The notes under the pieces: model-generated
What the model was told of the DNA's origin: nothing
Seen by the model: the letters and a program-made list of their open reading frames with translations, nothing else
Databases searched by the model: none
Source of the DNA: a virus
Lineage: Duplodnaviria > Heunggongvirae > Uroviricota > Caudoviricetes
DNA: 64,000 nt
Reading direction: 5' to 3' (one strand)
Virus record (IMG/VR): IMGVR_UViG_3300018475_001475
Made by a program: the position numbers and the translations under genes
In this document: one piece after another, positions 5,196 through 23,364 of the stretch
Layout of the letters: the number at the start of each line of letters is the position of its first letter
Position numbering within the stretch: the first letter of the stretch is position 1

Positions 5196-5669
5196 GTGAT
5201 TGATGTGGGTACCAATTTCTATATGATTACTAAGAATAAAAAAATGGCAGAAAAATATGCACCATATTCTTATGAGCTGACAGACAGACCATATTTTGGT
5301 TATGAAATTCACGTAGCTAAGACTTCATGTGGTTGGCTTCCTCTTTTTCAAGGGCACAGGGATGGCATCAATTCTGTGCGTGAATATAAGACGGCGTACA
5401 AAACGGGCGAATTTGAAATCGTAGATGAATATGGCAACATTTATACATGGGAAGAATTTGATAAACGGGTGTTGCAGTTTAACGGCGGTATTCGAGGAGT
5501 TGCACCTATAATTACAATAGAAGTAGATAAAAATTCTAGATGGTATGATCCAAGAATGCCAGATTGCACTCCAGTAAGTCATTTTGAATATAAATATGGT
5601 TATTATTCTGCAAACGATTACTTTACAGACGAAGATGGATATGAATTTGACAGAAGGGAATTTTCATAA
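5196..5669 (+). CDS. hypothetical protein (GTG start; alternative starts 5205/5223)
   Basis: 157-aa ORF after GAGGTG. Confidence 0.45.
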   Translation: MIDVGTNFYMITKNKKMAEKYAPYSYELTDRPYFGYEIHVAKTSCGWLPLFQGHRDGINSVREYKTAYKTGEFEIVDEYGNIYTWEEFDKRVLQFNGGIRGVAPIITIEVDKNSRWYDPRMPDCTPVSHFEYKYGYYSANDYFTDEDGYEFDRREFS

Positions 5670-7073: not shown

Positions 7074-7976
7074 ATGTATATCCCGAAGTTTATAATGATG
7101 GTAGGTTTGGTTGCGAGCGGCAAGTCTCATATGGCTCAAAAACTCGCTATCGAACACAATGCTACAATTTTTAGTTCGGATGAACTTCGAGAAGAAATGT
7201 TCAATAATGTCAACAACCAAGATCATAACCAAGAACTATTTGTAGAACTTCATAGGCGCATCAAGGACTGTCTTCGTAGTGGTAAAAGTGCCATTATGGA
7301 TTCTACAAACATTAACTACAAGCGTCGTATGGCATTCCTAGCTGAGCTTAAGAGCATTCCTTGTGAAAAGATTTGTGTGTTAATGGGAACTCCATATGAA
7401 GAATGTTTGAAGCGTAATGCTGAGCGTGAACGCAAAGTTCCAGAACATGTAATTTTAAGAATGTATAGCAATTTTAACATTCCTTATTGGTATGAAGGTT
7501 GGGACGACATTAAAGTTGAATATGGTGTGTTTAAAGGTTATTATGGCAAACTAGCAAGTTGGTATAACAATTATAAAGATTATAATCAATACAATTCTCA
7601 CCATACATTAACACTTGGAGAACATTGTTATAGGGCTGCATTAGAGTTAATTGGTAGCAATTCTGTCACGTTAGTACGTGCAGCATGGATGCATGATAAT
7701 GCGAAGCCAGAAACGGCAACATTTATCAACTCCAGGGGTGAGGTAACTACCGAATGTCATTATTACAACCACCAATATGTTTCTGGATACAAGGCACTCC
7801 TATTTGATTATAGCAATCTATTGGATGTTGCGATTATTGTAATGTGGCATATGCAACCTTATTTCTGGGAGAAAGATAATAATGAAAAGTTGCATAGTAA
7901 GTATCGTAAGTTATGGGGAGATAATTTGTATCAAGATATTATGCAACTCCATGCGGCGGATAAATTGTGGCATTGA
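7074..7976 (+). CDS. polynucleotide kinase-like P-loop kinase fused to HD-domain phosphohydrolase
   Basis: Walker A GLVASGKSH at N-terminus; C-terminal H...HD...H...H...D (SHHTLTLGEH, WMHDNAKP, HYYNHQ, MWHMQ, LHAADK). Confidence 0.6.
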   Translation: MYIPKFIMMVGLVASGKSHMAQKLAIEHNATIFSSDELREEMFNNVNNQDHNQELFVELHRRIKDCLRSGKSAIMDSTNINYKRRMAFLAELKSIPCEKICVLMGTPYEECLKRNAERERKVPEHVILRMYSNFNIPYWYEGWDDIKVEYGVFKGYYGKLASWYNNYKDYNQYNSHHTLTLGEHCYRAALELIGSNSVTLVRAAWMHDNAKPETATFINSRGEVTTECHYYNHQYVSGYKALLFDYSNLLDVAIIVMWHMQPYFWEKDNNEKLHSKYRKLWGDNLYQDIMQLHAADKLWH

Positions 7977-7996: not shown

Positions 7997-8024
7997 TTGA
8001 CAAATTAAAAATTTGTGATATAAT
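7997..8024 (+). promoter_or_regulatory. sigma-A-type promoter TTGACA-N16-TATAAT followed by ACAATACAAAATTAAT (8043-8058) and AAGGAG
   Basis: Hexamers at 7997-8002 and 8019-8024. Confidence 0.55.
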
Positions 8025-8075: not shown

Positions 8076-8588
8076 ATGAAAACGCTAATTGTAGTAGACA
8101 TGCAAAATGATTTTATTGATGCCGCACTTGGCACACCTGAGGCGCAGGCAATAGTACCTAACGTTAAAAAGAAGATTGCAGAATATGACGCTCGTGAAGA
8201 CGCAATTGTTTTTACACGAGACACCCATTTTGAAGATTATCTTGAAACGAATGAAGGCAAGAACCTTCCTGTTAAGCATTGTATTATGGGAACTCATGGT
8301 TGGCAGATTGCAGATGACCTAGAAGTACCTTGTGCTAGATATCTAAATAAGCCTACTTTTGGTTGGCTTGGTTGGAAGTCATTTGATTTTGAAGACGATG
8401 ATGAAATTGAACTAGTTGGTCTTTGTACTGATATCTGCGTGGTGTCTAATGCACTAATTCTAAAGGCAATGTTCCCTGAAGTTAAGATTACAGTGGACGC
8501 AAGTTGCTGTGCAGGCGTTACTCCTGAAAGTCATAAGGCGGCACTGCAGACTATGAAGATGTGCCAGATTAATGTTATTGGAGAGTAA
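8076..8588 (+). CDS. pncA: nicotinamidase/isochorismatase-family cysteine hydrolase (PncA-like)
   Basis: VVDMQNDF N-terminal motif, conserved Lys, catalytic-Cys motif GLCTDICV. Confidence 0.7.
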   Translation: MKTLIVVDMQNDFIDAALGTPEAQAIVPNVKKKIAEYDAREDAIVFTRDTHFEDYLETNEGKNLPVKHCIMGTHGWQIADDLEVPCARYLNKPTFGWLGWKSFDFEDDDEIELVGLCTDICVVSNALILKAMFPEVKITVDASCCAGVTPESHKAALQTMKMCQINVIGE

Positions 8589-8591
8589 ATT

Positions 8592-9398
8592 ATGATTAAG
8601 TTAGATGGTAAAATAGTGCACCAAGAGCATTTTCCAGACAATTCGCTGAGAATTGAACCAATCAATGACAATAGTTTCGATCTATCTTTTATGGGAATGA
8701 CATCAATTCCTAAAAGAATTACTTGGCACTATGAAAGCGATGCTGAATTGTTCACTGTAATTTGTCTAAGAAAGCATTTTGCAAATAAGGAAATGATTTT
8801 GGAAATGCCTTATTGTCCGCACGCTCGCATGGATCGAGTAAAGAACAACAATGAATTCTTTACACTAAAGCATTTTGCAGACGTCATTAATAGTCTTGAC
8901 TTCTCTGAGGTAAAAATTTATGATCCTCACAGCAATGTATGTACTGCGCTAATTAATAATGTAAAAGTAATACCTACATATAATGAGGTTCAAAAAGCTC
9001 TTAAGACAATTGGCTCAACCAATTTAGTTGCATTTTATCCTGATGAAGGGGCCATGAAGCGTGGCACTAGCTATTTGACTGGAGCATATGCGTTTGGTAT
9101 TAAAAATCGTGATTGGCAGACCGGTAAGATTTTAGGACTAGAGCTAATAAATAAGGAAGTTGTAAATGCGAGAGATGTTTTGATTATTGATGATATCTGT
9201 TCTCGTGGAGGTACATTCCTACATTCTGCTAAGGCACTCAAAGAAGCCGGTGCCAGAAAAATTTACCTGTACGTAACTCACTGCGAAAATACAATCCTGG
9301 ATGGTGAGCTACTTACCAGCGGCCTAATTGAAAAGGTATACACAACAAATAGTATTTTTACCAAAGGACATGAAATGATTGAGGTATTCGAACTATGA
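8592..9398 (+). CDS. prs: ribose-phosphate pyrophosphokinase (PRPP synthetase)-like
   Basis: DPHS motif and PRPP-binding loop VLIIDDICSRGGT. Confidence 0.75.
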   Translation: MIKLDGKIVHQEHFPDNSLRIEPINDNSFDLSFMGMTSIPKRITWHYESDAELFTVICLRKHFANKEMILEMPYCPHARMDRVKNNNEFFTLKHFADVINSLDFSEVKIYDPHSNVCTALINNVKVIPTYNEVQKALKTIGSTNLVAFYPDEGAMKRGTSYLTGAYAFGIKNRDWQTGKILGLELINKEVVNARDVLIIDDICSRGGTFLHSAKALKEAGARKIYLYVTHCENTILDGELLTSGLIEKVYTTNSIFTKGHEMIEVFEL

Positions 9399-10879
9399 CA
9401 ATTAATATTATGATGATGCTTTTTTCGGATACATATAAGCACACTCATCCTCGTATGTATCCTCGTAAAGAACCATTTAAAATGAAGAAGCTAGTTTCTT
9501 ATTTAACAGCACGTAAGAATATGTCCCCTGCATTTCCTACAATGGTATTTGTTGGTATGCAGCCATTTCTAATGAATTATCTTATTGATGGTTTCAACAA
9601 TCAATTCTTTGATCGGCCTTTGTGTGATGTAGAAGCAGAATATAAGCATTACATGGACATCCAGGTTGGTGTTGCTAATGTTGAGTGGGATGAAATTGCA
9701 GCACTACACGAACTTGGCTATTTGCCTCTTGAGATTCGTGCTTTACCTGAGGGCTCTGTGGTAAACATGGGTATTCCTGTGGTTGAAATGACTAATACTC
9801 ATCCCGATTTCGCATGGGTTGTTCAGTGGGTTGAATGTATTTTGCAGGCTGAACTGTGGGCTCCCTGTGCATACGCAACTATCGGCAAGGCGTATCATGA
9901 GCTAGCTGATAAGTACTATAAGGATACCACAGATGGCGCTGACCCCTTCATGGCCATGGCAGACTTCGGTATGCGTGGCATGTCTTGTATCGAGGATTCT
10001 ATTCGAGCATCTGCATCGTGGCTGCTAAGTTTCAACAAAACTTCCACTATTCCCGCTCTGCCGTATATTGATAAATATTATCATGCTGATTGTGCAAAAA
10101 ATGGTATTGGACGTGGCGCTGTCTCTACGGAACATTCTGTCATGGGTGCCAACTTCGCTATCGATGGCGATGAGATCACTTTCGTCAAGAGACTACTAAC
10201 CGAACTCTATCCTAATACATCTTTCTCTATGGTATCCGATACATACGACTACTGGAATATGGTCAACAATATTATTCCTGCTTGTAAGGATGAAATCATG
10301 GCACATAATGGTAAACTGTTAATTAGACCCGACTCTGGTGATATGCTCACTATTTCTATTCGTACCATTGAGAAGCTGTGGGAAGTATTTGGAGGCAGTA
10401 TTAATGCTAAAGGCTATAAGGAACTTGATCCTCATATTGGCCTGATTTATGGTGACGGTTGTACATTGAACCGTGTAGCTGATATTTATCGAACTCTTAA
10501 GGAACGTGGCTTTGCAGCGAATAATGTCGTGTTTGGCGTTGGAGCCTTCTGTTTCCATGCCATGTTTGATGTTGGCGGCAAAATGACCGTTATTACACGT
10601 GATACTTTTGGTATGGCGATGAAGGCTACATACGGTGAATTTGGTGACAAGAAGTTGTTTATCTATAAGGATCCAAAGACCGACGAAGGTAATCTAAAGA
10701 AAAGTCATAAGGGATGTTGTATGGTTAGAATGGACAACAAAAACGGTAGATATTTGTGTATGGACAAATTCGAAGGTTGGGTTCCTGATCATATGACAGC
10801 CCTGGAGACGGTCTTTAAGGATGGTAAGATGATTAAGAGCTATGACTTTATGGACATTCGGAGGAGAATGTATGGTTAA
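9395..10879 (+). CDS. nadV: nicotinamide phosphoribosyltransferase (NadV/NAMPT family)
   Basis: Colinear matches to NAMPT blocks: IRPDSG, KGYK, GDG, VFGVGA, KDPKTDEGNLKKSHKG, VFKDGKMIKSYDFMDIRRR. Confidence 0.85.
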   Translation: MTINIMMMLFSDTYKHTHPRMYPRKEPFKMKKLVSYLTARKNMSPAFPTMVFVGMQPFLMNYLIDGFNNQFFDRPLCDVEAEYKHYMDIQVGVANVEWDEIAALHELGYLPLEIRALPEGSVVNMGIPVVEMTNTHPDFAWVVQWVECILQAELWAPCAYATIGKAYHELADKYYKDTTDGADPFMAMADFGMRGMSCIEDSIRASASWLLSFNKTSTIPALPYIDKYYHADCAKNGIGRGAVSTEHSVMGANFAIDGDEITFVKRLLTELYPNTSFSMVSDTYDYWNMVNNIIPACKDEIMAHNGKLLIRPDSGDMLTISIRTIEKLWEVFGGSINAKGYKELDPHIGLIYGDGCTLNRVADIYRTLKERGFAANNVVFGVGAFCFHAMFDVGGKMTVITRDTFGMAMKATYGEFGDKKLFIYKDPKTDEGNLKKSHKGCCMVRMDNKNGRYLCMDKFEGWVPDHMTALETVFKDGKMIKSYDFMDIRRRMYG

Positions 10880-11333
10880 GATTATTGACGGCAATGTATT
10901 TGACTCGACAGCAAATATCATTTGCCACCAGTGCAATTGCCAAGGTGTTATGGGCTCTGGAGTTGCCGCAGAAGTTAAGAAGAGATACCCGCATGTCTTT
11001 CAGAAGTATAGACAAGATTATCTTGATGGCAAACTAGAACTTGGATATGTATGCTTCGCAACAGCAAAACAAGATCAGGTAATTGCTAATATGTGCGGAC
11101 AGGATCTGTTTGGCTACAACGGTTCTATGTATACAAATTATGACAAGCTCCAGGATTGTCTTAATAGGGTCAAGGAGTACGCAATGTTTGATTATGATGT
11201 AAAACCTGTTATTGCACTACCGTACATGATGTCGTGCTGCAGAGGCGGAGGCGACTGGAATGTGGTATACAAGATGATCGAAGATACATTCGAGGATTTT
11301 GACGTTGAAATTTGGAGGTTTGACAATGGATAA
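10872..11333 (+). CDS. macrodomain protein (TARG1/OARD1-like ADP-ribose binding/hydrolase fold)
   Basis: GNVFD...ANIICHQCNCQGVMGSGVAAEV and C-terminal SCCRGGGDW parallel the TARG1-like gene at 13420; GGAGG RBS; overlaps nadV stop. Confidence 0.6.
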   Translation: MVKIIDGNVFDSTANIICHQCNCQGVMGSGVAAEVKKRYPHVFQKYRQDYLDGKLELGYVCFATAKQDQVIANMCGQDLFGYNGSMYTNYDKLQDCLNRVKEYAMFDYDVKPVIALPYMMSCCRGGGDWNVVYKMIEDTFEDFDVEIWRFDNG

Positions 11334-12075
11334 TTTTGATGCAATTAAAGTAAAAAACGATATTATTAAATGGATTTCAGATTGGTTCTCTATTAATGGT
11401 CCAGACTGTAATGTGGTATGTGGAATCAGTGGCGGAAAGGATAGTTCTGTTGTAGCGGCGTTATGTGTAGAGGCGCTTGGCAAAGATAGAGTAATCGGAG
11501 TTCTGATGCCGCAGAACACTCAGTCTGACATTGATGATAGCTATGCAGTAGTTAAACACTTAGGCATTAAGCATAAAGTAATTAATATTGGACCAGTTGT
11601 TGATATGATGCTACTTCAATTGTCTATGTTTGGCGAAATGGAAATCTCCGAACAGACAAAGATTAACCTACCTCCTAGAATCCGTATGACAACACTCTAT
11701 GCAGTGTCTCAGAGTGTGAACGGCAGAGTCGCCAATACTTGCAACCTGTCCGAAGATTATATTGGTTACAGCACTCGTTGGGGAGATAGTGTTGGAGATT
11801 TCGCACCTTTGGCAAATCTAACAAGCGAAGAAGTTGTTGCAATTGGAGACGCTTGTGGATTACCTTATGAACTCACTCACAAAACTCCTTCTGATGGTCT
11901 GTGCGGGAAAACCGATGAAGACAACTTCGGTTTTACATATGAAGCACTAAATAAGTATATTCGCACTGGGATTTGCGAAGATGAAGAGGTAAAGGCAAAG
12001 ATTGATGCTATGCATGAAAAGAACATATTCAAGTTGATGCCAATTCCGACCTTTAGCTACGAGGTGCATAAATGA
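11326..12075 (+). CDS. nadE: NH3-dependent NAD+ synthetase
   Basis: PP-loop GISGGKDSS; length and layout of NadE; GGAGG RBS. Confidence 0.85.
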   Translation: MDNFDAIKVKNDIIKWISDWFSINGPDCNVVCGISGGKDSSVVAALCVEALGKDRVIGVLMPQNTQSDIDDSYAVVKHLGIKHKVINIGPVVDMMLLQLSMFGEMEISEQTKINLPPRIRMTTLYAVSQSVNGRVANTCNLSEDYIGYSTRWGDSVGDFAPLANLTSEEVVAIGDACGLPYELTHKTPSDGLCGKTDEDNFGFTYEALNKYIRTGICEDEEVKAKIDAMHEKNIFKLMPIPTFSYEVHK

Positions 12076-12356
12076 CAACTAAAAGCTTTATCATTAAAAC
12101 CGTAACGAAAATTATCATATACGCGATCATCTCAACAATTGCACTAAGTATTCTAGAAAGTCCCATTATCACCAATGAAATTGCTATGGGCCAGATGGAA
12201 AACAGCAATGAGCTATATATGTTAATGGAAGCTTATAACAGGCTTCGCCACTTTATTTCAATCATTTATGGTTGTATCACCGCACTATTTGCAGGAACAA
12301 TCATTGGTGATACATACAAATTTCTTAAAACAAAAATCAACAAAGGAGAAAATTAA
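12072..12356 (+). CDS. small membrane protein
   Basis: Two hydrophobic helices; GAGGTG RBS; start overlaps nadE stop. Confidence 0.45.
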   Translation: MTTKSFIIKTVTKIIIYAIISTIALSILESPIITNEIAMGQMENSNELYMLMEAYNRLRHFISIIYGCITALFAGTIIGDTYKFLKTKINKGEN

Positions 12357-12358
12357 TT

Positions 12359-13300
12359 ATGAAGAAGATTATCGCACTCGTACTAATGCTTGCTCTGACC
12401 TGCTGCCTGTTTACCGGCTGTCGCAGACCTTATGACAAGCCCGAATTCGTCACCATTGAAGCATCTCAGACCGCATTCCTAGTGCCTCTAGTTGGTGATA
12501 GCTCCAATCAGTCTGCATTTGAATCCGAAGAAATGCTATTAGAAGCAAAAGTCGCCACCAAGGAAATCCAGATCCCTCACCGCTGGGTACAGACTGGTCG
12601 TCGCCACTGGATGGGCCATTGGCGTGCAAGCGCAACTCTAATTGTTGTTGAGCGTAAGCCCGTATCTCGTTCCTGGGAATCCGGTAGTTCTTCCGCCGAT
12701 TCCGCCAACCGCGCAATCTTTGGCGGCAGCTCTGACAATATTGGCATCTATGTTGGTATGAACTGCACCGCTATGATCGAGGAAAAGGACGCCGCAAAGT
12801 TCCTATATCGTTATAACAACACTCCCCTGGAAACTATCATTGACACCGACATTAAGAAACTGGTTGAAGATCGCTTTAATGTAGAGACTGCTAAGTATAC
12901 TTCTACTGAGCTGGGTGCTAAGAAGGGCGAGATTATGGAGGCCGTAAAGGCTTATGTGGTTCCTTACTTCAAGGAATATGGCATCACCATTACTGTTCTG
13001 GGTCTGAAGGAAGACATTTCTTATGAGAATCCTGAGATTCAAAAGGCCATTGATGCTAAGTTTGCATCTGAACAGGAACTAGTGATTCAGCAGAATAAGA
13101 ACGAAGCAAGCATTGCTAAGGCAGAAGCTGAAGCAAAGTCTATGATTATGCTTGCTCAAGCGCAGGCTGAGGCGAACGAACTGCTAGCAAATTCTATCAC
13201 CGATAAAATTCTTGCTAAGATGTATTACGAAAAGTGGAATGGCGTGCTGCCCCAGTTCTATGGTGCAGAAGACGCTCTAATTGAGATTCCCGCAGCGTAA
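12359..13300 (+). CDS. lipoprotein with SPFH/band-7-like C-terminal coiled coil
   Basis: Signal peptide + lipobox LFTGC; Ala/Glu-rich C-terminal heptads AKAEAEAKSMIMLAQAQAEANELLA. Confidence 0.5.
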   Translation: MKKIIALVLMLALTCCLFTGCRRPYDKPEFVTIEASQTAFLVPLVGDSSNQSAFESEEMLLEAKVATKEIQIPHRWVQTGRRHWMGHWRASATLIVVERKPVSRSWESGSSSADSANRAIFGGSSDNIGIYVGMNCTAMIEEKDAAKFLYRYNNTPLETIIDTDIKKLVEDRFNVETAKYTSTELGAKKGEIMEAVKAYVVPYFKEYGITITVLGLKEDISYENPEIQKAIDAKFASEQELVIQQNKNEASIAKAEAEAKSMIMLAQAQAEANELLANSITDKILAKMYYEKWNGVLPQFYGAEDALIEIPAA

Positions 13301-13310
13301 AAAAATATAC

Positions 13311-13341
13311 GGGCCACGGCAAAACTGTGGCCCGCTTTTTG
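13311..13341 (+). terminator. rho-independent terminator
   Basis: GGGCCAC-N9-GTGGCCC stem followed by GCTTTTT. Confidence 0.6.
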
Positions 13342-13355
13342 TTAATATTGCACAA

Positions 13356-13384
13356 TTGACAAATGAAGATTAGTATGATAATAT
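13356..13384 (+). promoter_or_regulatory. sigma-A-type promoter TTGACA-N17-TAATAT followed by ACGATACAAAATTAAT (13386-13401) and AAGGAAG
   Basis: Hexamers at 13356-13361 and 13379-13384. Confidence 0.55.
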
Positions 13385-13419
13385 AACGATACAAAATTAA
13401 TAAAAGGAAGAAACAACAT

Positions 13420-13845
13420 ATGACTATTACTATTGAAAAGAAGGATCTATTTACTGTGCCACAGGGCTACTATCTCGCCCATTGCGTATCGTCCGACTTT
13501 GCCCTTGGAGCTGGAATCGCAAAGGTTTTTGATGAGGTGTACAATATGCGGTCTAAGCTCTTTAAGAATTATCCAAACTATGTATACAGTGGCGGTGACG
13601 CTCTGCTGGTTGATAATGTTTTTAACCTTGTAACCAAACAGAAGTATTATCACAAACCCACTTACGAATCTCTGAGAGAGGCTCTTGAGACGATGAGAGA
13701 GCATCTAGAGCTCCTTGATGTGACGAAACTGGCAATGCCGAAGATTGCATCGGGCCTTGATCGTCTTAATTGGAATCTGGTATATGATATTATTTGCGAA
13801 ACTTTTGAAGAAACCGACATTGATATTGTGATTTGCGAACTTTAA
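13420..13845 (+). CDS. TARG1/OARD1-like macrodomain, putative ADP-ribosyl glycohydrolase
   Basis: Near-colinear with human TARG1 as I recall it: KDLF...YLAHCVSSDFALGAGIAKVF, HKPTYESL, LAMPKIASGLDRLNW, ETDIDIVICEL. Confidence 0.8.
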   Translation: MTITIEKKDLFTVPQGYYLAHCVSSDFALGAGIAKVFDEVYNMRSKLFKNYPNYVYSGGDALLVDNVFNLVTKQKYYHKPTYESLREALETMREHLELLDVTKLAMPKIASGLDRLNWNLVYDIICETFEETDIDIVICEL

Positions 13846-13860
13846 TTGGAGGCTATAACA

Positions 13861-15078
13861 ATGGAAGTACGGCCCACATATTTGATTATGACTACAGCAG
13901 CAAATAACAACAAATATTATAACATTTTTCCAGAGGGCGACAGACTTAGAGTGGAGTACGGAAGGATTGATGCAACCAAGACAACCACATATTATCCAAT
14001 TTCTAAATTTGAAACACAGGTGAAATCAAAGATCAAGAAAGGCTACGTTGACGTAACCGATTTGAAGAAAGACCTTGTGCAAGAAATCTCCACTGCAAAC
14101 CCTGAAAGTCCTTACAAAGAAATTGAGAACGCAGCAATTAAAGCAATTGTTGACAAGCTGCATGCTATGGCCCGTGAAACAATTCAGAAAAACTACACCG
14201 TTAAGGCTTCTGCGGTTACTCATGACATGGTTGATGCTGCACAGAAAATTATTGATGACCTAGCCAACAGCAGCTCAACCGTAGAAGAATTTAATGCGAA
14301 TCTACTAAAGCTGTTCACTGTAATTCCTAGAAAAATGGGCAACGTAAGAGACTATCTTTCTAACAAGGCGGAAGACTTTGCTCGCATTATTTCTAAGGAG
14401 CAGGATCTACTGGACGTTATGCGTGGCCAGATTTATGTTAAGCCCGACAACGAACCCGTTGAGGCTGTGGAGAAGAAGCAGCAGACTATTCTTGAAGAAC
14501 TTGGTCTTGTCATGGAAGAGACTACTGAAGATGATGTTGCTATGATTAAGAGTTTGATGAACGAGTCTGCTGGAAAGTTTAGAAAGGCTTGGAGAGTTAC
14601 TAATCTGAAGACCCAGGAGCGCTTTGATAAGTTTGTTCAGGAGAATGATATTAAGGACACGAGACTATTCTTCCATGGTAGTAGAAGTGAAAATTTCTGG
14701 TCAATTATCAAAATGGGTCTTGTATTAAGACCTACAAACGCCGTAATTACAGGAAAAATGTTTGGATTTGGTTCGTATTTTTCGAACAAGTGCGCAAAGA
14801 GTATTGGTTATACTTCACTGTCTGGTTCTTATTGGGCACATGGCGGAAACAACATCGCGTATATGGCATTGTTTGATGTAGCCTATGGTACTCCTTATGA
14901 TGTCTACAATTTTGACAGCAAGTATTACAACCTTGATTATAATAAGCTTCAGCAGTTTAAGCCTGGGGCTAACTGTCTGCACGCACATGCTGATAGAGGA
15001 ATGTTGAGAAACGATGAGATTGTTGTTTACAAGGAAGAGCAGATGACTATTAAGTATCTAATTGAGATTGGTAATTGA
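13861..15078 (+). CDS. PARP-like ADP-ribosyltransferase (WGR domain + helical region + H-Y-E catalytic domain)
   Basis: FFHGSRSENFWSIIKMGL...ITGKMFGFGSYFS...NDEIVVYKEEQMTIKYL matches PARP1 HGS/GxGxYFA/YNEYIVY blocks; N-terminal YGRIDA WGR-like segment; GGAGG RBS. Confidence 0.8.
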   Translation: MEVRPTYLIMTTAANNNKYYNIFPEGDRLRVEYGRIDATKTTTYYPISKFETQVKSKIKKGYVDVTDLKKDLVQEISTANPESPYKEIENAAIKAIVDKLHAMARETIQKNYTVKASAVTHDMVDAAQKIIDDLANSSSTVEEFNANLLKLFTVIPRKMGNVRDYLSNKAEDFARIISKEQDLLDVMRGQIYVKPDNEPVEAVEKKQQTILEELGLVMEETTEDDVAMIKSLMNESAGKFRKAWRVTNLKTQERFDKFVQENDIKDTRLFFHGSRSENFWSIIKMGLVLRPTNAVITGKMFGFGSYFSNKCAKSIGYTSLSGSYWAHGGNNIAYMALFDVAYGTPYDVYNFDSKYYNLDYNKLQQFKPGANCLHAHADRGMLRNDEIVVYKEEQMTIKYLIEIGN

Positions 15079-15090
15079 GGAGTGTTTTGA

Positions 15091-17046
15091 GTGAATAAAA
15101 TTGACAGAATTAAAGAACTTGTAGAACTATTAAATCATTACAGAAATGAGTATTATAATAATTCTAGGAGTGAGATCTCAGACTTTGAATACGACAAGCT
15201 ATTTGATGAGTTAACATCGCTAGAATATGAAACAGGATTTATTATGGCTGTGTCGCCTACACAGACAGTTGGCTACGAGGTTAAGTCAGAGTTAAAAAAA
15301 GTAAAGCATAATCACCCCATGCTGTCACTAGACAAAACTAAAAGCGTAGACGATGTAATTAAATTTTTAAATGGTAAAGACGGCGTTATTATGGCAAAAG
15401 CAGATGGCTTAACATGCTCGCTTAGATATGTTAATGGTCATTTAATTTCTGCAGAGACCAGAGGTAATGGCGAAGTTGGCGAAGACATTTTGCACTGTGC
15501 CAAAACTATTAAAAACCTTCCGATAGAAATCAATTGTCTAGATGAAGTTATTGTTGATGGCGAAGTAATTATTACATATGATGATTTTGAAAAAATCAAT
15601 GAGGCGTTACCAGAGGGTCAAAAGTATAAGCATCCTAGAAATCTAGCGTCTGGATCTATCAGACAGCTTGACAGCAGTATTGCCGCACAGCGCAGCATGC
15701 AGTTTATCGCGTGGAAATTAGTTAAAGGCGGTATATATGATTCGTTTTGTTTGAATATTTTTCATATGTATTATCTTGGCTTTGATGTCATTGACTATGC
15801 GCCTATATCACATCGGATTAGACCAAAAGACATTAACATCTATATTTCTTGCATTAAAGATCATGCAAAGAACGCGGGAATCCCAATCGATGGATGTGTG
15901 TTTGGCTATGATGATATAGCTTATGGTGAATCTCTTGGAGCAACCGGGCACCACCTGCGGAGTCAGCTCGCTTTCAAATTTTATGACGAACTGTATCCAA
16001 CTAAATTACAATATATTGACTGGACTGTTGGCAAGTCTTCCCAGTTAACTCCAACTGCTGTATTTGAGACAGTAGAAATTGATGGAACTGATGTGTCAAA
16101 GGCATCGCTGCATAATATTAGTATTATTAAAAATCTTGGACTTACAAATGGATGTACTGTGAATGTGTTCAAAGCAAATCAGATTATTCCACAAATTGAT
16201 TCCTGTGAAAATGACGGTAATGGGGACATTGAAATTCCTACAACATGTCCTATTTGCGGTGGTTTGACGGCCATTAAAAAAGATAACGAGTCAGAAGTGT
16301 TAGTCTGCACAAATTCTGAATGCGCTGGAAAAAAGCTTGCACAATTTACCCACTTCGTTTCCAAGAAGGGCATGGATATTAAAAACCTGTCTGAAGCAAC
16401 GCTAGAAGTACTAATCTCGCATGGTTTTATACGAAAATTCGATGATATTTATTATCTTTCCAACCACTATGGTGACCTTGTTCATCTTGACGGGTTTGGC
16501 AAAAAATCTATCGATAATCTACTAAAATCCATAGATGATTCAAAAAACGTTAAGCTTGAGAATTTCATTGCCGCATTGGGTATTACTAATATTGGATTAT
16601 CTGCGGCAAAGACTATTTCTAAGGCATGCGATGGTGACTGGAATAAATTATGGGACATGTGGAATTATGAATATGATTTTACCAAGTTGGATGACTTTGG
16701 AGAAGTAATGGCAAATAATTTTGTAAAATATTTTGACACATATATTAACGACATTTCCGCTCTTGCCGACAGAATGAATTTTATTGTTGAAGAAAATAAG
16801 CCTGCTAGTAACAGCGTATTCACAGGAAAAACAATTTGCGTTACCGGAAAGCTGAATCATTTCACCAGAGATTCTATCAACGAAAAGATTACTTCCCTTG
16901 GCGCAAAAACAGCAGGCTCTGTCTCCAAGAAAACTGATTACTTGGTAACAAATGAGACTAGTGGATCTTCTAAATATAAGAAGGCTGTTGAGCTTAATAT
17001 CCCAATTATTACAGAGGACGAGTTTATTAAAATGTTGGAGGATTAA
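15091..17046 (+). CDS. ligA: NAD+-dependent DNA ligase
   Basis: KxDG adenylation motif KADGLT, four-Cys zinc finger (CPICGG...CTNSEC), C-terminal BRCT (FTGKTICVTGKL); GTG start after GGAG. Confidence 0.9.
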   Translation: MNKIDRIKELVELLNHYRNEYYNNSRSEISDFEYDKLFDELTSLEYETGFIMAVSPTQTVGYEVKSELKKVKHNHPMLSLDKTKSVDDVIKFLNGKDGVIMAKADGLTCSLRYVNGHLISAETRGNGEVGEDILHCAKTIKNLPIEINCLDEVIVDGEVIITYDDFEKINEALPEGQKYKHPRNLASGSIRQLDSSIAAQRSMQFIAWKLVKGGIYDSFCLNIFHMYYLGFDVIDYAPISHRIRPKDINIYISCIKDHAKNAGIPIDGCVFGYDDIAYGESLGATGHHLRSQLAFKFYDELYPTKLQYIDWTVGKSSQLTPTAVFETVEIDGTDVSKASLHNISIIKNLGLTNGCTVNVFKANQIIPQIDSCENDGNGDIEIPTTCPICGGLTAIKKDNESEVLVCTNSECAGKKLAQFTHFVSKKGMDIKNLSEATLEVLISHGFIRKFDDIYYLSNHYGDLVHLDGFGKKSIDNLLKSIDDSKNVKLENFIAALGITNIGLSAAKTISKACDGDWNKLWDMWNYEYDFTKLDDFGEVMANNFVKYFDTYINDISALADRMNFIVEENKPASNSVFTGKTICVTGKLNHFTRDSINEKITSLGAKTAGSVSKKTDYLVTNETSGSSKYKKAVELNIPIITEDEFIKMLED

Positions 17047-17048: not shown

Positions 17049-17300
17049 ATGAATGAACTATATTTTATGGGCTTAGATGTGGCCGCAGAAACTAAAACAC
17101 TAGTTAACTTCACCACATCTACGTGTACAGAAGGTATGACGGAATCTGAACTCAAGGCATACAACCTTGGTGTCAAGAATACTCTTGCAGCACTAAAGTC
17201 CGCGCTGGAAGATGAGGCTATTGTTGTTAATATTGATGGAATGGAAATTCCAACCGAGATGAACTTTGAAGATCTGAAAGATTATTTTTGTGAGGATTAA
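17049..17300 (+). CDS. hypothetical small acidic protein
   Basis: 83 aa, GGAGG RBS, start coupled to ligA stop. Confidence 0.45.
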   Translation: MNELYFMGLDVAAETKTLVNFTTSTCTEGMTESELKAYNLGVKNTLAALKSALEDEAIVVNIDGMEIPTEMNFEDLKDYFCED

Positions 17301-17302
17301 TT

Positions 17303-17788
17303 ATGGGAAATAATAATATCGTAAATAACTACTGTAGCACATTTACCCAAATTCTGAACGACGTGGTTAAGAAGTATGAAACCAATGTAAGCGTCATTAA
17401 GCAAACCGAAGAAACACTTACCGATGTCGAACACGAAATTGAACTTGGGAAAAATCAAGATATGTATCATGGTTATTTGTTATATAAGCAAATCAAAGAC
17501 CTTCGGATGAAGCGCAGACAGGCAAAAGATGAAAATGCTCTACTACAAGACATGTACGAATATATTAAAAGTCAACAAGGGCAGGCATTTAAAAGCAAGG
17601 TTCAGTCTATTCAAGGAAATTCCGCAAAGGTATATGAAGCCCAGGCTCGTAGAACATATACGCCTCGACAACTAAACAATTTAACAATTACAGACAAAAC
17701 GTGTGAAGTGAACCGCCCATTCGAAGATCTTTTGCGAGATTTTAAAAAGGAAAAGGTGACCATGCAGGGAGGCAAGCTCCGCAAGTGA
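17303..17788 (+). CDS. hypothetical protein (coiled-coil-rich)
   Basis: 161-aa ORF with GAGGA RBS. Confidence 0.5.
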   Translation: MGNNNIVNNYCSTFTQILNDVVKKYETNVSVIKQTEETLTDVEHEIELGKNQDMYHGYLLYKQIKDLRMKRRQAKDENALLQDMYEYIKSQQGQAFKSKVQSIQGNSAKVYEAQARRTYTPRQLNNLTITDKTCEVNRPFEDLLRDFKKEKVTMQGGKLRK

Positions 17789-17793
17789 CCACT

Positions 17794-17821
17794 TGACAAA
17801 ACAAAATTAATGTGTTATAAT
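17794..17821 (+). promoter_or_regulatory. sigma-A-type promoter TTGACA-N16-TATAAT; spacer contains ACAAAATTAAT
   Basis: Hexamers at 17794-17799 and 17816-17821. Confidence 0.55.
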
Positions 17822-17854
17822 AACCACGATCAAAAATTGAAAGGAGCGATCCAT

Positions 17855-18169
17855 ATGGAAGAAGAAAACAAGAATGTAGAATTAGAAGAAGCTGTAGAAC
17901 CTCAGACTACTGCAGATGACGAACTAAAGGGTGCAATTGAGGATACGCTGTCAAAACTGCGTAGACAGTCAATGTTGCTAGGATTTCAAGTTGCATGTCA
18001 GACGGTTTTAGACAAGATTACTGCGTTTGAAAGAAAGCCTGGAAGTAAGTCTAATAATGATCACAAGCGACTAATCAAAGAGATCAAGCAGTTTGCTGAG
18101 CAGGGTCTTTCCAGAAAAGTTAACACCGATGGTGAGACTGAGCCTATTGAACAAACAGCACAAAATTAA
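17855..18169 (+). CDS. hypothetical acidic protein
   Basis: AAGGAG RBS 7 nt before ATG 17855; Glu/Asp-rich N-terminus. Confidence 0.45.
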   Translation: MEEENKNVELEEAVEPQTTADDELKGAIEDTLSKLRRQSMLLGFQVACQTVLDKITAFERKPGSKSNNDHKRLIKEIKQFAEQGLSRKVNTDGETEPIEQTAQN

Positions 18170-18181
18170 TGAGGTGATAGA

Positions 18182-18787
18182 ATGAGAGTAGAAATCAAAT
18201 GGCATGATGATATGTGGCAGGAGATTAAGGATAGTGCAATGTTTACAATCCACAAGTATAATGGTGGCAAATATCCTGATTCTAAGTGGAAAAGTGACCT
18301 TTTACTATCTGAGCATTCACCTATTAGGGTTGGGCATCTAATTATTAATTGTTATGATGTACCAACATTTGTTATCAATCATCTTGTTAGACATAATCAA
18401 GGATTTACTCCATTTGTATCTTCCTTGAGAGATGATAGAACAGAGTATGAAGACGGCAAAGTGCCGGATAGAAATACACCGAATGGCGTTCGTTTCGATG
18501 GCAATTTTCAGAGCTTTATCAACATCACAAGACGTAGAGAATGTACTTCTGCCTCTAAAGAAACAAGAGAATTCTGGAATGAAGTTCTTCTTGCTATTAA
18601 GGAATTTGAGCCGGAACTGTACAGTAGATGTGTTAGAGAATGTATTTATAGAGGTGGATGCCCAGAATACCCGACAACTTGTGGTTGGTGGGATGGGTTT
18701 TGCAAAAAACATCAGGACTGCAATCTGCTAAATATCCACGAAAGATACGACGTCTACAATAGGGATAGGGGTGGTTCCCATGAATGA
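18182..18787 (+). CDS. divergent ThyX-like (flavin-dependent thymidylate synthase family) protein
   Basis: PTFVINHLVRHNQGF...SSLRD resembles ThyX PIFVARQLLRHRxxSxxExSxRY, but RHR is replaced by RHN and the spacing is altered. Confidence 0.4.
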   Translation: MRVEIKWHDDMWQEIKDSAMFTIHKYNGGKYPDSKWKSDLLLSEHSPIRVGHLIINCYDVPTFVINHLVRHNQGFTPFVSSLRDDRTEYEDGKVPDRNTPNGVRFDGNFQSFINITRRRECTSASKETREFWNEVLLAIKEFEPELYSRCVRECIYRGGCPEYPTTCGWWDGFCKKHQDCNLLNIHERYDVYNRDRGGSHE

Positions 18788-19361
18788 TCCACTATATCTG
18801 TTCGTTGGTAGGTCGTCATGCGGAAAGACCACTGTCGCCAACGTGTTAGAAGATAAATTTGGATACAAGCAGGTATATTCATATTGCACACGTCAACCTC
18901 GTTTTGAAGGAGAGCCAGGACATATCTTCGTGAGCGAAGAGGAATTTAATAATCTGGGAGAACTAGCGGCATACACTTTTTATAACGGTAATCATTACGG
19001 CACGACCTTAGAGCAGTTAAATAAATGTAATATTTACGTAGTGGATATTCCCGGAGTAGAATCGCTTCTAAAAAAGCTAGTCAATGACACACGTCCAATT
19101 TGCATCTTTTACTTTGACGCATCTGTATATAATCGCATTCTTCGTATGGTCGAAAGAGGCGATAGCGATGGTATGATTCTGGCTAGACTGCTTGAAGACG
19201 AGAAATTTGACTGGTTTAAGAGACTAGATTCTTTGATATGGCACTATAACAATATTGTAGGGAAAAACATTGAACTATATAGTATTAATGCTAACAGTAG
19301 CCAGAAAGCTGTAACTGAGCTAGTGCTATATTATATGCGCAAACATGAAGGGTGGGTTTAA
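18780..19361 (+). CDS. guanylate-kinase-like P-loop nucleoside monophosphate kinase
   Basis: Walker A GRSSCGKTT; CTRQPRFEGEPGHIF resembles Gmk TTRxPRxGExxGxxYxF. Confidence 0.55.
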   Translation: MNDPLYLFVGRSSCGKTTVANVLEDKFGYKQVYSYCTRQPRFEGEPGHIFVSEEEFNNLGELAAYTFYNGNHYGTTLEQLNKCNIYVVDIPGVESLLKKLVNDTRPICIFYFDASVYNRILRMVERGDSDGMILARLLEDEKFDWFKRLDSLIWHYNNIVGKNIELYSINANSSQKAVTELVLYYMRKHEGWV

Positions 19362-19363
19362 GC

Positions 19364-19915
19364 ATGGCTGTTATATTAGTAGATATGGATAATGTCCTCT
19401 GTAATCTGCAGGAAGTTGTAGTTAAACTATTTAACAAGAGGTATGGAACGCACTATACACTAGAAGACTTCACAGATTATGATGTGGCCCAGAATTTGCC
19501 TAAAAATGAGGCTATTTTGATGAAAACTATGTATAGTGAGGACGATTTATATAGCTATGTTAAACCTCTTCCAGGTGCTCAAAAAACGGTAGAAAAACTG
19601 ATAAATGCGGGTCATCAGGTATATGTAGTCAGTGACGTTATTCCCAAGACTTATGCCGAAAAGGTTGAGTGGTTGAAGTTTTATTTTCCGCAGATTGATG
19701 AATCGCATATCGTGGCAATGAAACATAAACATCTTTTTAAATGCGATGTTATGATAGAGGACAATCTGCAGAACCTATTGGCAAAGCCTTATTATGAGCG
19801 TATTTGTTTTGACTATGCGTGGAATCGCAATGTAAGTGATTATGCTTATGGCATCCACAGAGTTTCTCACTGGAATGAAGTATTGGATGTTATAAATAAA
19901 TTAGATTTGGAGTGA
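19364..19915 (+). CDS. HAD-superfamily 5'(3')-deoxyribonucleotidase
   Basis: ILVDMDNVL (DxDxV nucleophile motif) at N-terminus; size and layout of the NT5C-like family. Confidence 0.65.
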   Translation: MAVILVDMDNVLCNLQEVVVKLFNKRYGTHYTLEDFTDYDVAQNLPKNEAILMKTMYSEDDLYSYVKPLPGAQKTVEKLINAGHQVYVVSDVIPKTYAEKVEWLKFYFPQIDESHIVAMKHKHLFKCDVMIEDNLQNLLAKPYYERICFDYAWNRNVSDYAYGIHRVSHWNEVLDVINKLDLE

Positions 19916-19921
19916 TGAAGA

Positions 19922-22171: not shown

Positions 22172-22202
22172 TAACAATACAAAATTAATAGGAGGACGAA
22201 TT

Positions 22203-23202: not shown

Positions 23203-23364
23203 ATGAAAGATGTAATTATAAGATATTTACCATACGGAACAACTCAAGAAGAATTAAAACAAATAAGGCATGAATTTAAGGATGAAAACACAACTCTTAT
23301 TTTGATAATTTCAGGTCAAGATAAACTATTGGATAACTTGCAATCTCTTGTGAATATTGACTAA
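23203..23364 (+). CDS. small hypothetical protein (53 aa) upstream of integrase
   Basis: GGAG RBS; MKDVIIRYLPYGTTQEELKQIRHEF... Confidence 0.35.
   Translation: MKDVIIRYLPYGTTQEELKQIRHEFKDENTTLILIISGQDKLLDNLQSLVNID

Follow-up and report, generated by a model that had tools for sequence, protein, structure and literature searches.

[quoted passage not shown] What the genes encode, which catalytic residues they keep, how they are split into operons and how far their neighbourhoods are conserved were observed directly, and all genes described below are encoded on the + strand. The phage genome is about 170 kb long, occurs in many metagenomes and encodes a large serine recombinase.

The initial annotation had grouped two TARG1-like macrodomains, the PARP and LigA into one writer/eraser set within a single early operon. 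The ORF coordinates of the four genes were correct, with the same boundaries in the JGI gene calls for an identical 170,224-bp contig, and the genes do share one strand within 6.2 kb, but an intrinsic terminator (13310-13334, + strand) and a promoter-like site (13356-13384, + strand) divide the region into two transcription units. The terminator ends operon 1 with a 10-bp stem, 8 of whose pairs are G-C, and a T-run after it; its folding energy is -20 kcal/mol (z = -4.5), and none of 200 shuffles was equally stable. The promoter-like site reads TTGACA-17-TAATAT with a TG element and, together with a Shine-Dalgarno sequence, AAAGGAAG, precedes Macro-2. Operon 1 is headed by a sigma70-type promoter (7997-8024, + strand; TTGACA-16-TATAAT with TG, 12/12 consensus match), 52 nt downstream of which PncA starts, and has the order PncA-Adps-Namat-Macro1-NadE, followed by two membrane genes (12072-13300) encoding a 94-aa membrane protein and an SPFH/Band-7 lipoprotein (Band_7 1.3e-10; phrog_200 lipoprotein), both absent from the NAD cassette in other phages. 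Operon 2 has the order Macro2-PARP-LigA-p83-p161, with gaps of 15 and 12 nt between the first three genes, all in the same orientation, and the next consensus promoter lies after it, at 17793-17821. The tightly spaced small proteins p83 and p161 (17049-17788; phrog_4039/2717, unknown function) close this operon; p161 is 59% identical in loci L010-L015, at a distance of 8.3-8.8 kb downstream from where PARP starts, and relatives keep it downstream of PARP at no more than about 9 kb.

The tight, same-strand adjacency of PARP, TARG1-type eraser and LigA is thus retained from the original grouping, whereas Macro-1, which is not of the TARG1 type, belongs to the separate upstream operon as the fourth gene of the NAD cassette. 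The two modules are also distributed independently. The cassette recurs in about 80 IMG/VR contigs, the order PncA-Adps-Namat-(Macro1)-NadE being found without PARP nearby in about 77 of 82 cassette loci and also in MT835544.1. PARP is present in just two of the 82, namely L004, which is the contig of the window, and L073. The 58 IMG/VR loci that the PARP alignment yielded all lack cassette genes within 10 kb. Operon structure and independent distribution contradict the single-operon reading, and a single set comprising all four genes is scarcely credible.

The product of 13861-15078 is a PARP with WGR, helical (regulatory) and ART domains. It matched Pfam PARP with 81.8 bits (cut-off 26.7; E 6e-23), and a phmmer search against the PDB matched the helical and catalytic domains of PARP1 at 1e-12, aligning LFFHGSR, GSYFSN and NDEIVVY to PARP1 H862, Y896 and E988. 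These profile searches bear out the placement in the PARP family and the H-Y-E signature proposed originally, and the corresponding residues, H272, Y306 and E386, show no variation among diverse relatives, in sets of 30 and of 75. The window's PARP itself has no Pfam WGR match; this domain is matched by 21 of 30 relatives, and the family profile (positions 10-398) aligns to PARP2 WGR-HD-CAT at 1e-45. A confident AlphaFold model (pLDDT 91.2, pTM 0.87) has as its best structural match PARP1 WGR-HD-CAT on a DNA break (8g0h_D, E 1.7e-20), in agreement with the WGR-like N-terminus that had been suspected.

The same WGR-helical-ART order is seen in human PARP1/2/3 and in the characterised PARPs of the bacteria Herpetosiphon aurantiacus and Clostridioides difficile CD160. 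With clade-1 PARPs the phage protein shares the H-Y-E residues plus the equivalents of G863, K903, S904 and Y907, and its size, about 400 aa, is reminiscent of the minimal bacterial form (PMC4245714, PMC8120803). Unlike clade-1 PARPs it has no zinc fingers or BRCT domain, Tyr takes the place of Trp in its WGR motif (EYGR), and its partner is a TARG1-type hydrolase, whereas bacterial PARPs are usually found with PARG; it also differs from the human and bacterial clade-1 enzymes in being phage-encoded, and its activity is predicted from sequence. The annotated phage PARPs (Cellulophaga phi4:1 gp031, Xanthomonas XacN1 ORF414 and Klebsiella FBKp34 gp111) belong to the same WGR-(HD)-PARP family, with 25-32% identity to the window's PARP, but lack an adjacent macrodomain, several having a gp030-like or vWA protein instead.

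Directly upstream of PARP, Macro-2 (13420-13845) is a predicted TARG1/OARD1-type ADP-ribosyl hydrolase. It matches human TARG1/OARD1 (PDB 4j5r) at 4.5e-26 and, as first noted from its sequence, is colinear with it (residues 3-139 versus 8-144, 42% identity), with K73 and D114 aligned to the catalytic residues K84 and D125; both are retained in all PARP-adjacent relatives of the TARG1 type. Its phage-encoded, PARP-adjacent setting differs from that of the Fusobacterium mortiferum TARG1 (FmTARG1), which is found in a polymorphic-toxin/immunity context. The gene at 15091-17046 encodes, as originally called, a full-length NAD+-dependent DNA ligase, in which domain Ia and the adenylation, OB, Zn finger, HhH and BRCT domains were all found; it scores 534 bits against the NCBIfam LigA equivalog (cut-off 369), and the lysine of the KxDG motif in the adenylation domain is K103.

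From these assignments we infer the substrates, DNA dependence and order of events of module B as follows. The PARP would bind phage DNA at nicks or ends and, with NAD+ as substrate, modify itself, partner proteins and/or the DNA ends with ADP-ribose; this mark would then be taken off by the TARG1-type hydrolase, freeing ADP-ribose, and LigA, which also uses NAD+, would seal the break. Precedents exist in the ADP-ribosylation of phosphorylated DNA ends by PARP3 and PARP2, reversed by TARG1 (PMC5725667, PMC5861426), and in telomeric DNA-ADPr, on which PARP1 and TARG1 act (PMC11102865).

Conservation of the neighbourhood in related phages is in agreement with this arrangement. Five PARP clusters (70% identity) share 46% identity or more with the window's protein, and four of them have a macrodomain gene within 1.6 kb of PARP, and in most such loci (PARP identity 46-100%) it lies directly upstream; this macrodomain is mostly of the TARG1 type, and of the Macro-1 type in L019, L020 and L031. 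In the same identity range a DNA ligase, NAD- or ATP-dependent, usually lies within 5 kb. By tblastn, LigA or an ATP-dependent ligase is found within this distance in 8/34 clusters, to which BLASTP adds more, and both ligase classes occur near PARP in several gene orders. In a clade of 59% identity the genes run primase - PD-(D/E)XK nuclease - Pol III alpha - ERCC4 - LigA - macro - PARP, so that the trio sits within a replication block. Only a single PARP subclade shows the macro-PARP adjacency; other genes flank the more distant phage PARPs (Cellulophaga phi4:1, XacN1, FBKp34). Ligase proximity may partly reflect inherited synteny inside replication modules. The upstream macrodomain, the nearby ligase and the replication-block trio lead us to favour DNA nick or break signalling by reversible ADP-ribosylation.

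These neighbours also bear on a different role, in which the PARP modifies host proteins (RNA polymerase, translation apparatus or defence proteins) in the manner of T4 Alt/ModA/ModB or AcrIF11, with Macro-2 limiting collateral modification of phage proteins. Host-reprogramming phage ARTs are well established (PMC8120803; PMC12421852), such a role has been put forward for phage PARPs by Iyer et al. (PMC7824862), and the consensus sigma70 promoter suggests transcription by the host RNA polymerase. We regard this role as unlikely, considering that the full WGR-HD-ART architecture is that of DNA-break-activated PARPs, that the best structural matches are DNA-bound PARP1/2, and that the recurrent PARP neighbours are ligases and replication/repair genes and not host-takeover genes.

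Alternatively, the adjacency to PARP could mean little, with Macro-2, and possibly Macro-1, clearing the ADP-ribose placed on phage nucleic acids by host toxins (DNA ARTs of the DarT type, RNA ARTs of the CmdT type). TARG1 does reverse thymidine ADP-ribosylation by DarT (PMC8501950), and models of the DarG macrodomain pick up both proteins (PADLOC 1e-21 and 5e-11; NCBIfam 5e-18 and 5e-8). TARG1-type macrodomains also stand alone in many phages, with 35 phage records, none bearing a PARP, and 10 cassette loci containing one without PARP, and for this reason Macro-2 may have a PARP-independent role. Counter-defence is nevertheless an improbable explanation of the locus: nearly every locus of the PARP subclade has a macrodomain immediately upstream of PARP, in a position that is kept when the subtype swaps, which argues for a PARP-linked role, and Macro-1, a member of the NAD cassette, carries Gln in place of DarG K80.

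A writer beside an eraser recalls DarT-DarG, in which an ART likewise lies beside a macrodomain hydrolase, and the PARP could be an NAD+-consuming or DNA-modifying toxin restrained by the macrodomain, serving superinfection exclusion or abortive infection by a possibly temperate phage. The large serine recombinase, and the pattern whereby the PARP needs a macrodomain neighbour while macrodomains do not need a PARP, are compatible with this. The locus differs from DarT-DarG in that the writer is a PARP, no DarT or DarG C-terminal domain is present, and Macro-1 lacks the catalytic K80 lysine. Such a toxin-antitoxin module is very improbable, however, as the PARP has no PADLOC match and the pair shares a transcript with LigA and is surrounded in relatives by polymerase, primase and nuclease genes; prophage copies were absent from 185,579 representative genomes, except for one 12-kb contig binned into a MAG.

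The NAD+ synthesis genes of operon 1, absent from the initial annotation, are central to the reading of module A. The first encodes a PncA-like nicotinamidase of the isochorismatase family (8076-8588; Pfam Isochorismatase 4e-27). Of the PDB entries it matches the P. horikoshii nicotinamidase 1ilw best (9e-14), in an alignment that pairs the catalytic Asp/Cys and the metal ligands, and it is co-conserved with the cassette. It is followed by a Prs-family, Adps-like predicted ADP-ribose pyrophosphokinase (8592-9398; phrog_619 1e-66), 36% identical (4e-54) to the Prs-like gene beside the canonical Namat of phage KKP_3916 and matching true Prs structures at only 1e-9 to 1e-14. Its end overlaps the start of a Namat-like transferase (9395-10879), closest to PDB 9w5x/9w5w, which contain the Namat motif GSFTYQYNTRD (5.5e-99, versus 1e-53 for human NAMPT). 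NadE (11326-12075, start as in the JGI call), an NH3-dependent synthetase converting NaAD to NAD+, matches Pfam NAD_synthase (1.5e-49) and TIGR00552 nadE (168 bits, cut-off 63.65).

The cassette resembles NARP1/NARP1-AP (Osterman et al. 2024; bioRxiv 10.64898/2026.01.28.702374) in its adjacent Adps-like and Namat-like genes and in having a macrodomain in the operon, and differs in that PncA and NadE are fixed members and in its Namat nicotinamide pocket, where Asp215 is replaced by Ser (Ser217 in the window's protein) and Ala242 likewise by Ser. The structure of SpbetaL1 Namat shows a hydrogen bond between Asp215 and nicotinamide, and D215A lowers activity 8-fold (PMC12774641); in NAMPT, substrate specificity is defined by Asp219 (PMC7096376). 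Ser or Ala occupies this position in all 82 cassettes carrying PncA and/or NadE, whereas canonical Namat loci have Asp or Glu in 83/83 and NadE or PncA in 0/83. Because the Asp-to-Ser change always co-occurs with PncA and NadE, the sequences suggest a nicotinic-acid-dependent NARP1 variant, of which we found no description in the literature, the NARP1 reports consulted making no mention of NadE, nicotinamidase or nicotinic acid. All Ser-type loci fall into one clade (49-100% identity), and the association could thus go back to one inherited event and not to repeated selection.

In module A the Adps-like enzyme would pyrophosphorylate ADP-ribose, and the Namat-like enzyme would link the product to a pyridine base. 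The fixed PncA and NadE and the loss of the amide-binding Asp make a route via nicotinic acid and NaAD likely, and we infer from them the nicotinic acid specificity: PncA would convert nicotinamide to nicotinic acid, the Namat-like enzyme would join this with ADPR-PP to give NaAD, and NadE would yield NAD+. Use of ADPR-PP over PRPP is a prediction only, since a 10-aa insertion in the clamp helix of the Namat-like protein interrupts the clamp motif.

Much of this gene set belongs to kinds already described. Phage PARPs have been reported from genomics (Perina 2014, PMC4245714; Iyer 2021, PMC7824862), as has the joint presence of NAD synthesis genes, LigA and PARP in the "NAD synthesis and utilisation" repertoires of gut jumbo phages (PMC11662467), a survey with no mention of macrodomains or PARP-eraser pairing. 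The original remark that this is not a characterised configuration is therefore fair as regards experiments and too broad as regards genomics; what appears to be undescribed is the conserved eraser-PARP(-ligase) link and the apparent nicotinic-acid version of the NAD pathway.

Macro-1 (10872-11333; Pfam Macro 26 bits, cut-off 22; phrog_335 2.5e-39) is indeed a macrodomain, although of another subtype than the TARG1-like one first assigned: it is 18% identical to Macro-2, has Gln and Gly at the TARG1 K84 and D125 positions, and so lacks the catalytic Lys of TARG1 and DarG. Its PDB relatives are BT1257 (6.5e-10), DarG (1.3e-7) and Poa1p (2.7e-5), as well as SCO6735. A macrodomain follows Namat in most NAD cassettes, and in NARP1-AP a macrodomain ADPR-1''-phosphate phosphatase feeds NARP1 (bioRxiv 10.64898/2026.01.28.702374). 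Macro-1 is accordingly labelled Adpp-like and predicted to free ADP-ribose from ADPR-1''-phosphate or a similar derivative, and the cassette containing it fits NAD+ reconstitution of the NARP1-AP type.

The plus strand of the window carries a dense array of co-oriented genes between 7.0 and 17.8 kb, whose identities were taken from profile searches with the window ORFs. A promoter matching the consensus at 12 of 12 positions (7997-8024) precedes an isochorismatase-family nicotinamidase (PncA-like, 8076-8588), a Prs-family protein (Adps-like, 8592-9398), a NAMPT-family protein (Namat-like, 9395-10879), the macrodomain Macro-1 (10872-11333), NadE (11326-12075), a 94-residue membrane protein (TM94, 12072-12356) and an SPFH/Band-7 lipoprotein (12359-13300). 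These are followed by a second macrodomain, the TARG1 homologue Macro-2 (13420-13845), PARP (13861-15078), LigA (15091-17046) and two small ORFs, p83 (17049-17300) and p161 (17303-17788), with the next consensus promoter at 17793-17821. The sole sizeable intergenic gap of the region, 13301-13419, contains a 10-bp G+C-rich hairpin and then a T-run (folding energy -20 kcal/mol, z = -4.5, none of 200 shuffles being equally stable); 3' of the hairpin lies a promoter-like TTGACA-17-TAATAT that also has an extended -10 TG, and Macro-2 is preceded by a strong Shine-Dalgarno sequence. On either side of this gap, adjoining genes overlap or are separated by 2-15 nt. Considering the terminator hairpin, the promoters and this tight spacing, we assign PncA-Adps-Namat-Macro1-NadE-TM94-SPFH to a first operon and Macro2-PARP-LigA-p83-p161 to a second one, which contradicts the single operon that the initial annotation had drawn for the two macrodomains, PARP and LigA.

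The membrane protein and the SPFH lipoprotein (12072-13300), which close the first operon before the terminator, are missing from the corresponding cassette in most other phages. Just 5' of this operon, an Rnl1-like RNA ligase (5669-6781; phrog_562, 3e-51) and a plus-strand polynucleotide kinase (7074-7976; match to the Clostridium thermocellum Pnkp kinase domain, 7e-10) form an RNA (tRNA) repair pair. A polynucleotide kinase is also found near PARP in several relatives (recovered contig loci L010-L015, L051, L055 and L068).

The assignment of the 13861-15078 product as a PARP, with an H-Y-E triad behind a WGR-like segment, was confirmed. Its Pfam PARP domain scores 81.8 bits (gathering score 26.7, E-value 6e-23), and the HGS, YFS and NDEIVVY motifs fall on His862, Tyr896 and Glu988 of human PARP1 in the alignment. 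The residue pairs are H272/G273, Y306, K313/S314, Y317 and E386 with PARP1 H862/G863, Y896, K903/S904, Y907 and E988. H272, G273, Y306, K313, Y317 and E386 are invariant both in an alignment of 30 sequences, containing relatives 23-78% identical to the window PARP, and in one of 75 sequences representing 50%-identity clusters; S314, likewise invariant in the former, shows conservation of 90% or more in the latter. Pfam detected no WGR domain in the window PARP itself, where the motif reads Y-G-R instead of W-G-R; nevertheless, 21 of the 30 relatives match WGR (PF05406), and the family profile aligns end to end with the WGR-HD-CAT region of PARP2 (1e-45), placing YGRVG on WGRVG. Residues ~125-250 align to the helical regulatory domain (HD) of PARP1, and PARP_reg is matched in 4 of the 30 relatives. 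A first AlphaFold model, built on a shallow two-clade alignment, was discarded (pLDDT 54). The AF2 model obtained with the 75-sequence alignment (pLDDT 91.2, pTM 0.87) shows helices at 91-190, and the structures that match it best are WGR-HD-CAT chains of PARP1 bound to a DNA double-strand break and of break-bridging PARP2/HPF1, with TM-scores of 0.62-0.65 over the full length. Domain content and catalytic triad together give a solid prediction of an ARTD clade 1 member with the WGR-HD-ART order.

The call of a TARG1-like protein at 13420-13845 was likewise borne out. Macro-2 aligns with TARG1 at 4.5e-26, colinearly (3-139 against 8-144) and with 42% identity, and its K73 and D114 correspond to the catalytic Lys84 and Asp125; it falls under the Pfam Macro cut-off (17.7 against 22 bits). 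By these alignments, it is a true TARG1/OARD1 homologue. LigA is also as annotated, since the Ia, adenylation (KxDG), OB, zinc finger, HhH and BRCT domains were all found and the NCBIfam equivalog threshold was passed. For the 10872-11333 product, described as a second, related TARG1-like macrodomain, only the fold stands: Macro-1 reaches 26 bits with Pfam Macro, is just 18% identical to Macro-2 and shows Gln and Gly in place of the two TARG1 catalytic residues, and for that reason it does not belong to the TARG1/OARD1 family. Among solved structures it is closest to BT1257, DarG macrodomains, SCO6735 and yeast Poa1p. An identity as a DarG antitoxin was rejected for the macrodomains: the DarG models were matched in their macrodomain portion alone (1-141 of 329), with scores well under the cut-off (65 against 250 bits), the catalytic Lys80 of DarG is Gln in Macro-1, and no adjacent DarT was found.

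To examine the genomic context of PARP we used 58 loci from an IMG/VR scan with the PARP alignment, in which the PARPs were clustered at 70% identity. Of the five clusters sharing 46% identity or more with the window PARP, four have a macrodomain gene within 1.6 kb upstream of PARP; in most such loci the two gene starts are only 410-480 nt apart, so that the macrodomain gene is the adjacent one. Most of these macrodomains are TARG1-type, all of them with the Lys and Asp retained, and three loci (L019, L020 and L031) have a Macro-1-type protein in the same slot. The position of a macrodomain beside PARP is thus conserved and its subtype is exchanged. A DNA ligase was found by tblastn within 5 kb of PARP in 8 of 34 clusters, with further cases by BLASTP; for one ligase at a random position in a genome of 150 kb, the chance of lying this close is ~7%. 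Some of these ligases are LigA and others ATP-dependent, and they lie either upstream or downstream. In a clade at 59% identity the order is DnaG-type primase, PD-(D/E)XK nuclease, Pol III alpha, ERCC4 nuclease, LigA, macrodomain and PARP.

More distant phage PARPs have no macrodomain neighbor. Several of these loci adjoin a family of 150-270 residues without Pfam or PDB match, and XacN1 has a vWA protein; hidden macrodomains beside PARP in phi4:1 and FBKp34 were considered and rejected, the neighbors giving no Pfam match. This family of 150-270 residues, A3 (gp030-like), is found next to PARP in phi4:1 (gp030, L001:9157-9621), L032, L043, L045-L048, L050 and L067, and its conserved N-terminal domain of ~65 residues (…TVTTLEIKNELR…DNGTYRxYS) resembles a winged helix by eye. 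The A3 proteins may represent another kind of PARP partner or target. Another family of ~100 residues without known domain (190 residues in L051) is encoded immediately 3' of PARP in L018, L019, L020, L022, L031 and L051, recurring among relatives with PARPs of 49-56% identity.

Stand-alone erasure by the macrodomains, directed against DarT, is a decidedly improbable explanation. TARG1-type macrodomains do occur without PARP, in 35 phage records (none with PARP) and near 10 NAD cassettes without ART, and around one such macrodomain (L120) the search for another ART returned only methylases and unknown genes. In the window PARP subclade, then, PARP comes with an eraser and the eraser does not need PARP. 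That this pairing works as a toxin-antitoxin-like exclusion module is very unlikely, and PADLOC defence models gave no match for PARP, the SPFH protein, p83 or p161.

We favor the view that PARP helps to deal with nicks or ends of the phage's DNA, because its predicted domain order matches that of PARPs activated by DNA breaks, and its hydrolase and nick-sealing partners stand in replication or repair blocks. The WGR segment would recognize a DNA nick or end and autoinhibition by the helical domain would be released, after which PARP would ADP-ribosylate itself, its partners or DNA termini; the TARG1-type Macro-2 would then remove the mark, allowing ligation to follow. There are direct eukaryotic parallels for these steps: PARP2 and PARP3 modify phosphorylated DNA ends, a modification reversed by TARG1 (PMC5725667, PMC5861426), and PARP1 and TARG1 control telomeric DNA-ADPr (PMC11102865). 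The same transferase might instead modify host proteins in the manner of T4 Alt/Mod, which we consider unlikely beside this architecture and these partners.

The first operon corresponds to a different system. Its Adps-like and Namat-like genes overlap, and Macro-1 overlaps the Namat stop. The Namat-like protein matches PDB entries 9w5x, 9w5w and 9ke8 at 1e-90 to 1e-99 (best 5.5e-99) and human NAMPT at 1e-53; 9w5x and 9w5w, the top two, for which alignments were displayed, bear GSFTYQYNTRD, the published Namat signature (PMC12774641). The Adps-like protein is distant from real Prs enzymes and 36% identical to the Prs-like gene product adjoining the canonical Namat of phage KKP_3916. By homology, the pair is the predicted counterpart of the Adps and Namat genes of NARP1, the phage NAD+ reconstitution pathway of Osterman et al. 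(2024). In 15% of NARP1 operons there is also a macrodomain, Adpp, which dephosphorylates ADPR-1''-phosphate and lets NARP1 overcome RES-domain NADases (bioRxiv 10.64898/2026.01.28.702374). Macro-1, a predicted phosphatase, occupies such a place within the operon, as in this Adpp-containing form, NARP1-AP. Kinship to Macro-1 alone was rejected as a NARP1 marker: phage FADO has a relative of it without adjoining NARP1, so that position in the cassette, and not family membership alone, defines the role.

For comparison we assembled 82 cassette loci, namely 80 from IMG/VR (60-82% identity to the window Namat), MT835544.1 and the window's own contig. The arrangement PncA-Adps-Namat-(Macro1)-NadE is present in ~77 of the 82, and PARP lies within 7 kb in only two of them, L073 and the window's own contig; conversely, of the 58 IMG/VR loci from the scan with the PARP alignment, not one has the cassette genes within 10 kb. 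We therefore regard the modules as separate units that are neighbors by chance in the window phage, and this contradicts the inclusion of Macro-1 in a PARP/eraser set, as it belongs to the NAD+ cassette. The Namat of phage records H93, H95-H107, H109, H110 and H117 (e.g., Bacillus phages KLEB27-3, Kirov, Izhevsk, Tsamsa and MrDarsey) was matched in two pieces, the split genes spanning ~1,690 nt against ~1,480 nt, which suggests an intron or intein inside the Namat genes of these records.

The nicotinamide pocket in the crystal structure of SpbetaL1 Namat is formed by F189, R192, D215, A242, R306, D13' and Y15', with D215 hydrogen-bonding nicotinamide and D215A lowering activity 8-fold (PMC12774641); the equivalent Asp219 of human NAMPT is reported to set substrate specificity (PMC7096376). 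The window protein has Ser217 in place of this nicotinamide-binding Asp, and the equivalent of Ala242 is also Ser. At the D215 position, 81 of the 82 cassette loci have Ser and one (MT835544.1) Ala, these Ser/Ala loci being one clade, against Asp in 75 and Glu in 8 of 83 canonical Namat loci. In work by Khan et al. from 2006, NAMPT D219S reportedly admits nicotinic acid. The canonical loci contain Adps in 81 cases and a Macro-1-type gene in 12, the order Adps-Macro-Namat included, and NadE or PncA within 7 kb in none of the 83. An NMNAT seed, which is blind to NadD-type enzymes, found no match in the 64-kb window or in the flanks of 7 kb around the 82 cassette loci, and no adenylyltransferase family is among the precomputed JGI Pfam calls for L004, a window-identical locus of 21 kb. 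We did not count the NCBIfam name of the Namat-like protein, "nicotinate phosphoribosyltransferase" (PRK09198), toward nicotinate use, as it is a generic NadV/NAMPT family label.

The simplest reading of a Ser variant accompanied by PncA and NadE suggests a nicotinic-acid-dependent ("deamidated") NARP1 that proceeds via NaAD. PncA would convert nicotinamide to nicotinic acid, the Ser-variant Namat would join nicotinic acid to ADPR-PP, the product that the Adps-like enzyme would make from ADP-ribose, yielding NaAD, and NadE would amidate NaAD to NAD+. The clamp motif GSX-phi-X-phi-X-phi-TRD is broken in the window protein, which reads GAFCFH, a 10-residue insertion and ITRD, and the donor could consequently still be PRPP. 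Such a nicotinic-acid branch of phage NAD+ reconstitution would withstand hosts that remove or withhold nicotinamide, and would add a new enzymatic reaction, ADPR-PP + nicotinate to NaAD. In the NARP1 literature examined we found no mention of NadE, nicotinamidase or nicotinic acid, and no paper pairing NARP1 with them.

In the window lineage specifically, the adjacent cassette could recycle the ADP-ribose and nicotinamide freed by a PARP/TARG1 cycle, a coupling that we infer. Taken further, and as a tentative proposal, the 9.7-kb locus might be a closed ADP-ribose economy composed of a phage-DNA-break PARP, a TARG1-type eraser and a deamidated NARP1 refeeding PARP and LigA. PARP, triggered by nicks or ends in phage DNA, would mark proteins or DNA ends and free nicotinamide; the TARG1-type enzyme would free ADP-ribose, which the Adps-like enzyme would turn into ADPR-PP; nicotinic acid made by PncA would be combined with ADPR-PP to NaAD by the Ser-variant Namat and converted to NAD+ by NadE; and the new NAD+ would again supply PARP and LigA. 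If true, this would hold two things for which we found no description, a deamidated NARP1 and a phage DNA-break ADP-ribosylation signaling like eukaryotic PARP-TARG1-ligase repair.

Lists that include phage PARP genes go back to 2014 (PMC4245714), such genes have been discussed for jumbo phages (PMC7824862), and a 2024 survey of gut jumbo phages described NAD-synthesis clusters with LigA and PARP, suggesting self-repair and leaving macrodomains unmentioned (PMC11662467). NARP1 with an associated macrodomain is already published (bioRxiv 10.64898/2026.01.28.702374), and only two active bacterial PARPs have been demonstrated, each reversed by its own PARG (PMC8120803). Three features appear undescribed: the conserved pair of PARP with a TARG1-type (or exchangeable) macrodomain, its association with ligases using either cofactor, and the Ser-variant Namat cassette, in which PncA and NadE are obligatory. 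DNA-break PARP signaling is viewed as essentially eukaryotic. With a compact PARP linked to both an eraser and a ligase, phages present in many metagenomes would offer a simple system for probing what a PARP of the prokaryotic world does.

An identical locus, with the same gene boundaries, is present on a 170,224-bp JGI metagenome contig. The exact PARP protein occurs on at least 22 contigs, and PARP matches extend to more than 4,000 protein clusters at 90% identity, on contigs of up to ~170 kb, with 633 clusters at 50% identity for E-values up to 1e-30; the window therefore represents a large phage lineage that many metagenome assemblies contain. No match to the 8.8-kb region was found by megablast among 50,697 phage records, and thus no close cultured relative. 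A scan of 185,579 genomes with a 4-sequence PARP alignment returned a single close match (83% identity), located on a contig of 12 kb that had been binned into a MAG of an uncultured Clostridium, and hence no evidence of prophage or bacterial copies. This Clostridium-binned contig, the sigma70-type consensus promoters and the strong Shine-Dalgarno sites weakly suggest a Firmicutes host.

Downstream of the second operon, 17810-22499 is a nucleotide-metabolism block with a weak ThyX-like match, a P-loop kinase, an NT5C 5'-nucleotidase and an RNR large subunit, to which the JGI Pfam calls for the window's own contig add a dUTPase and a TSCPD domain in RNR. A large serine recombinase (23357-25405; phrog_95, 4e-99) lies where, at ~25.5 kb, gene orientation turns from plus to minus and the cumulative GC skew peaks, and the site may mark a temperate phage or a module boundary. 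On the minus strand, giant ORFs of 2811 and 2531 residues flank an HNH/homing endonuclease gene (38892-39800), and 30289-47517 may be one giant gene region split by this mobile endonuclease.
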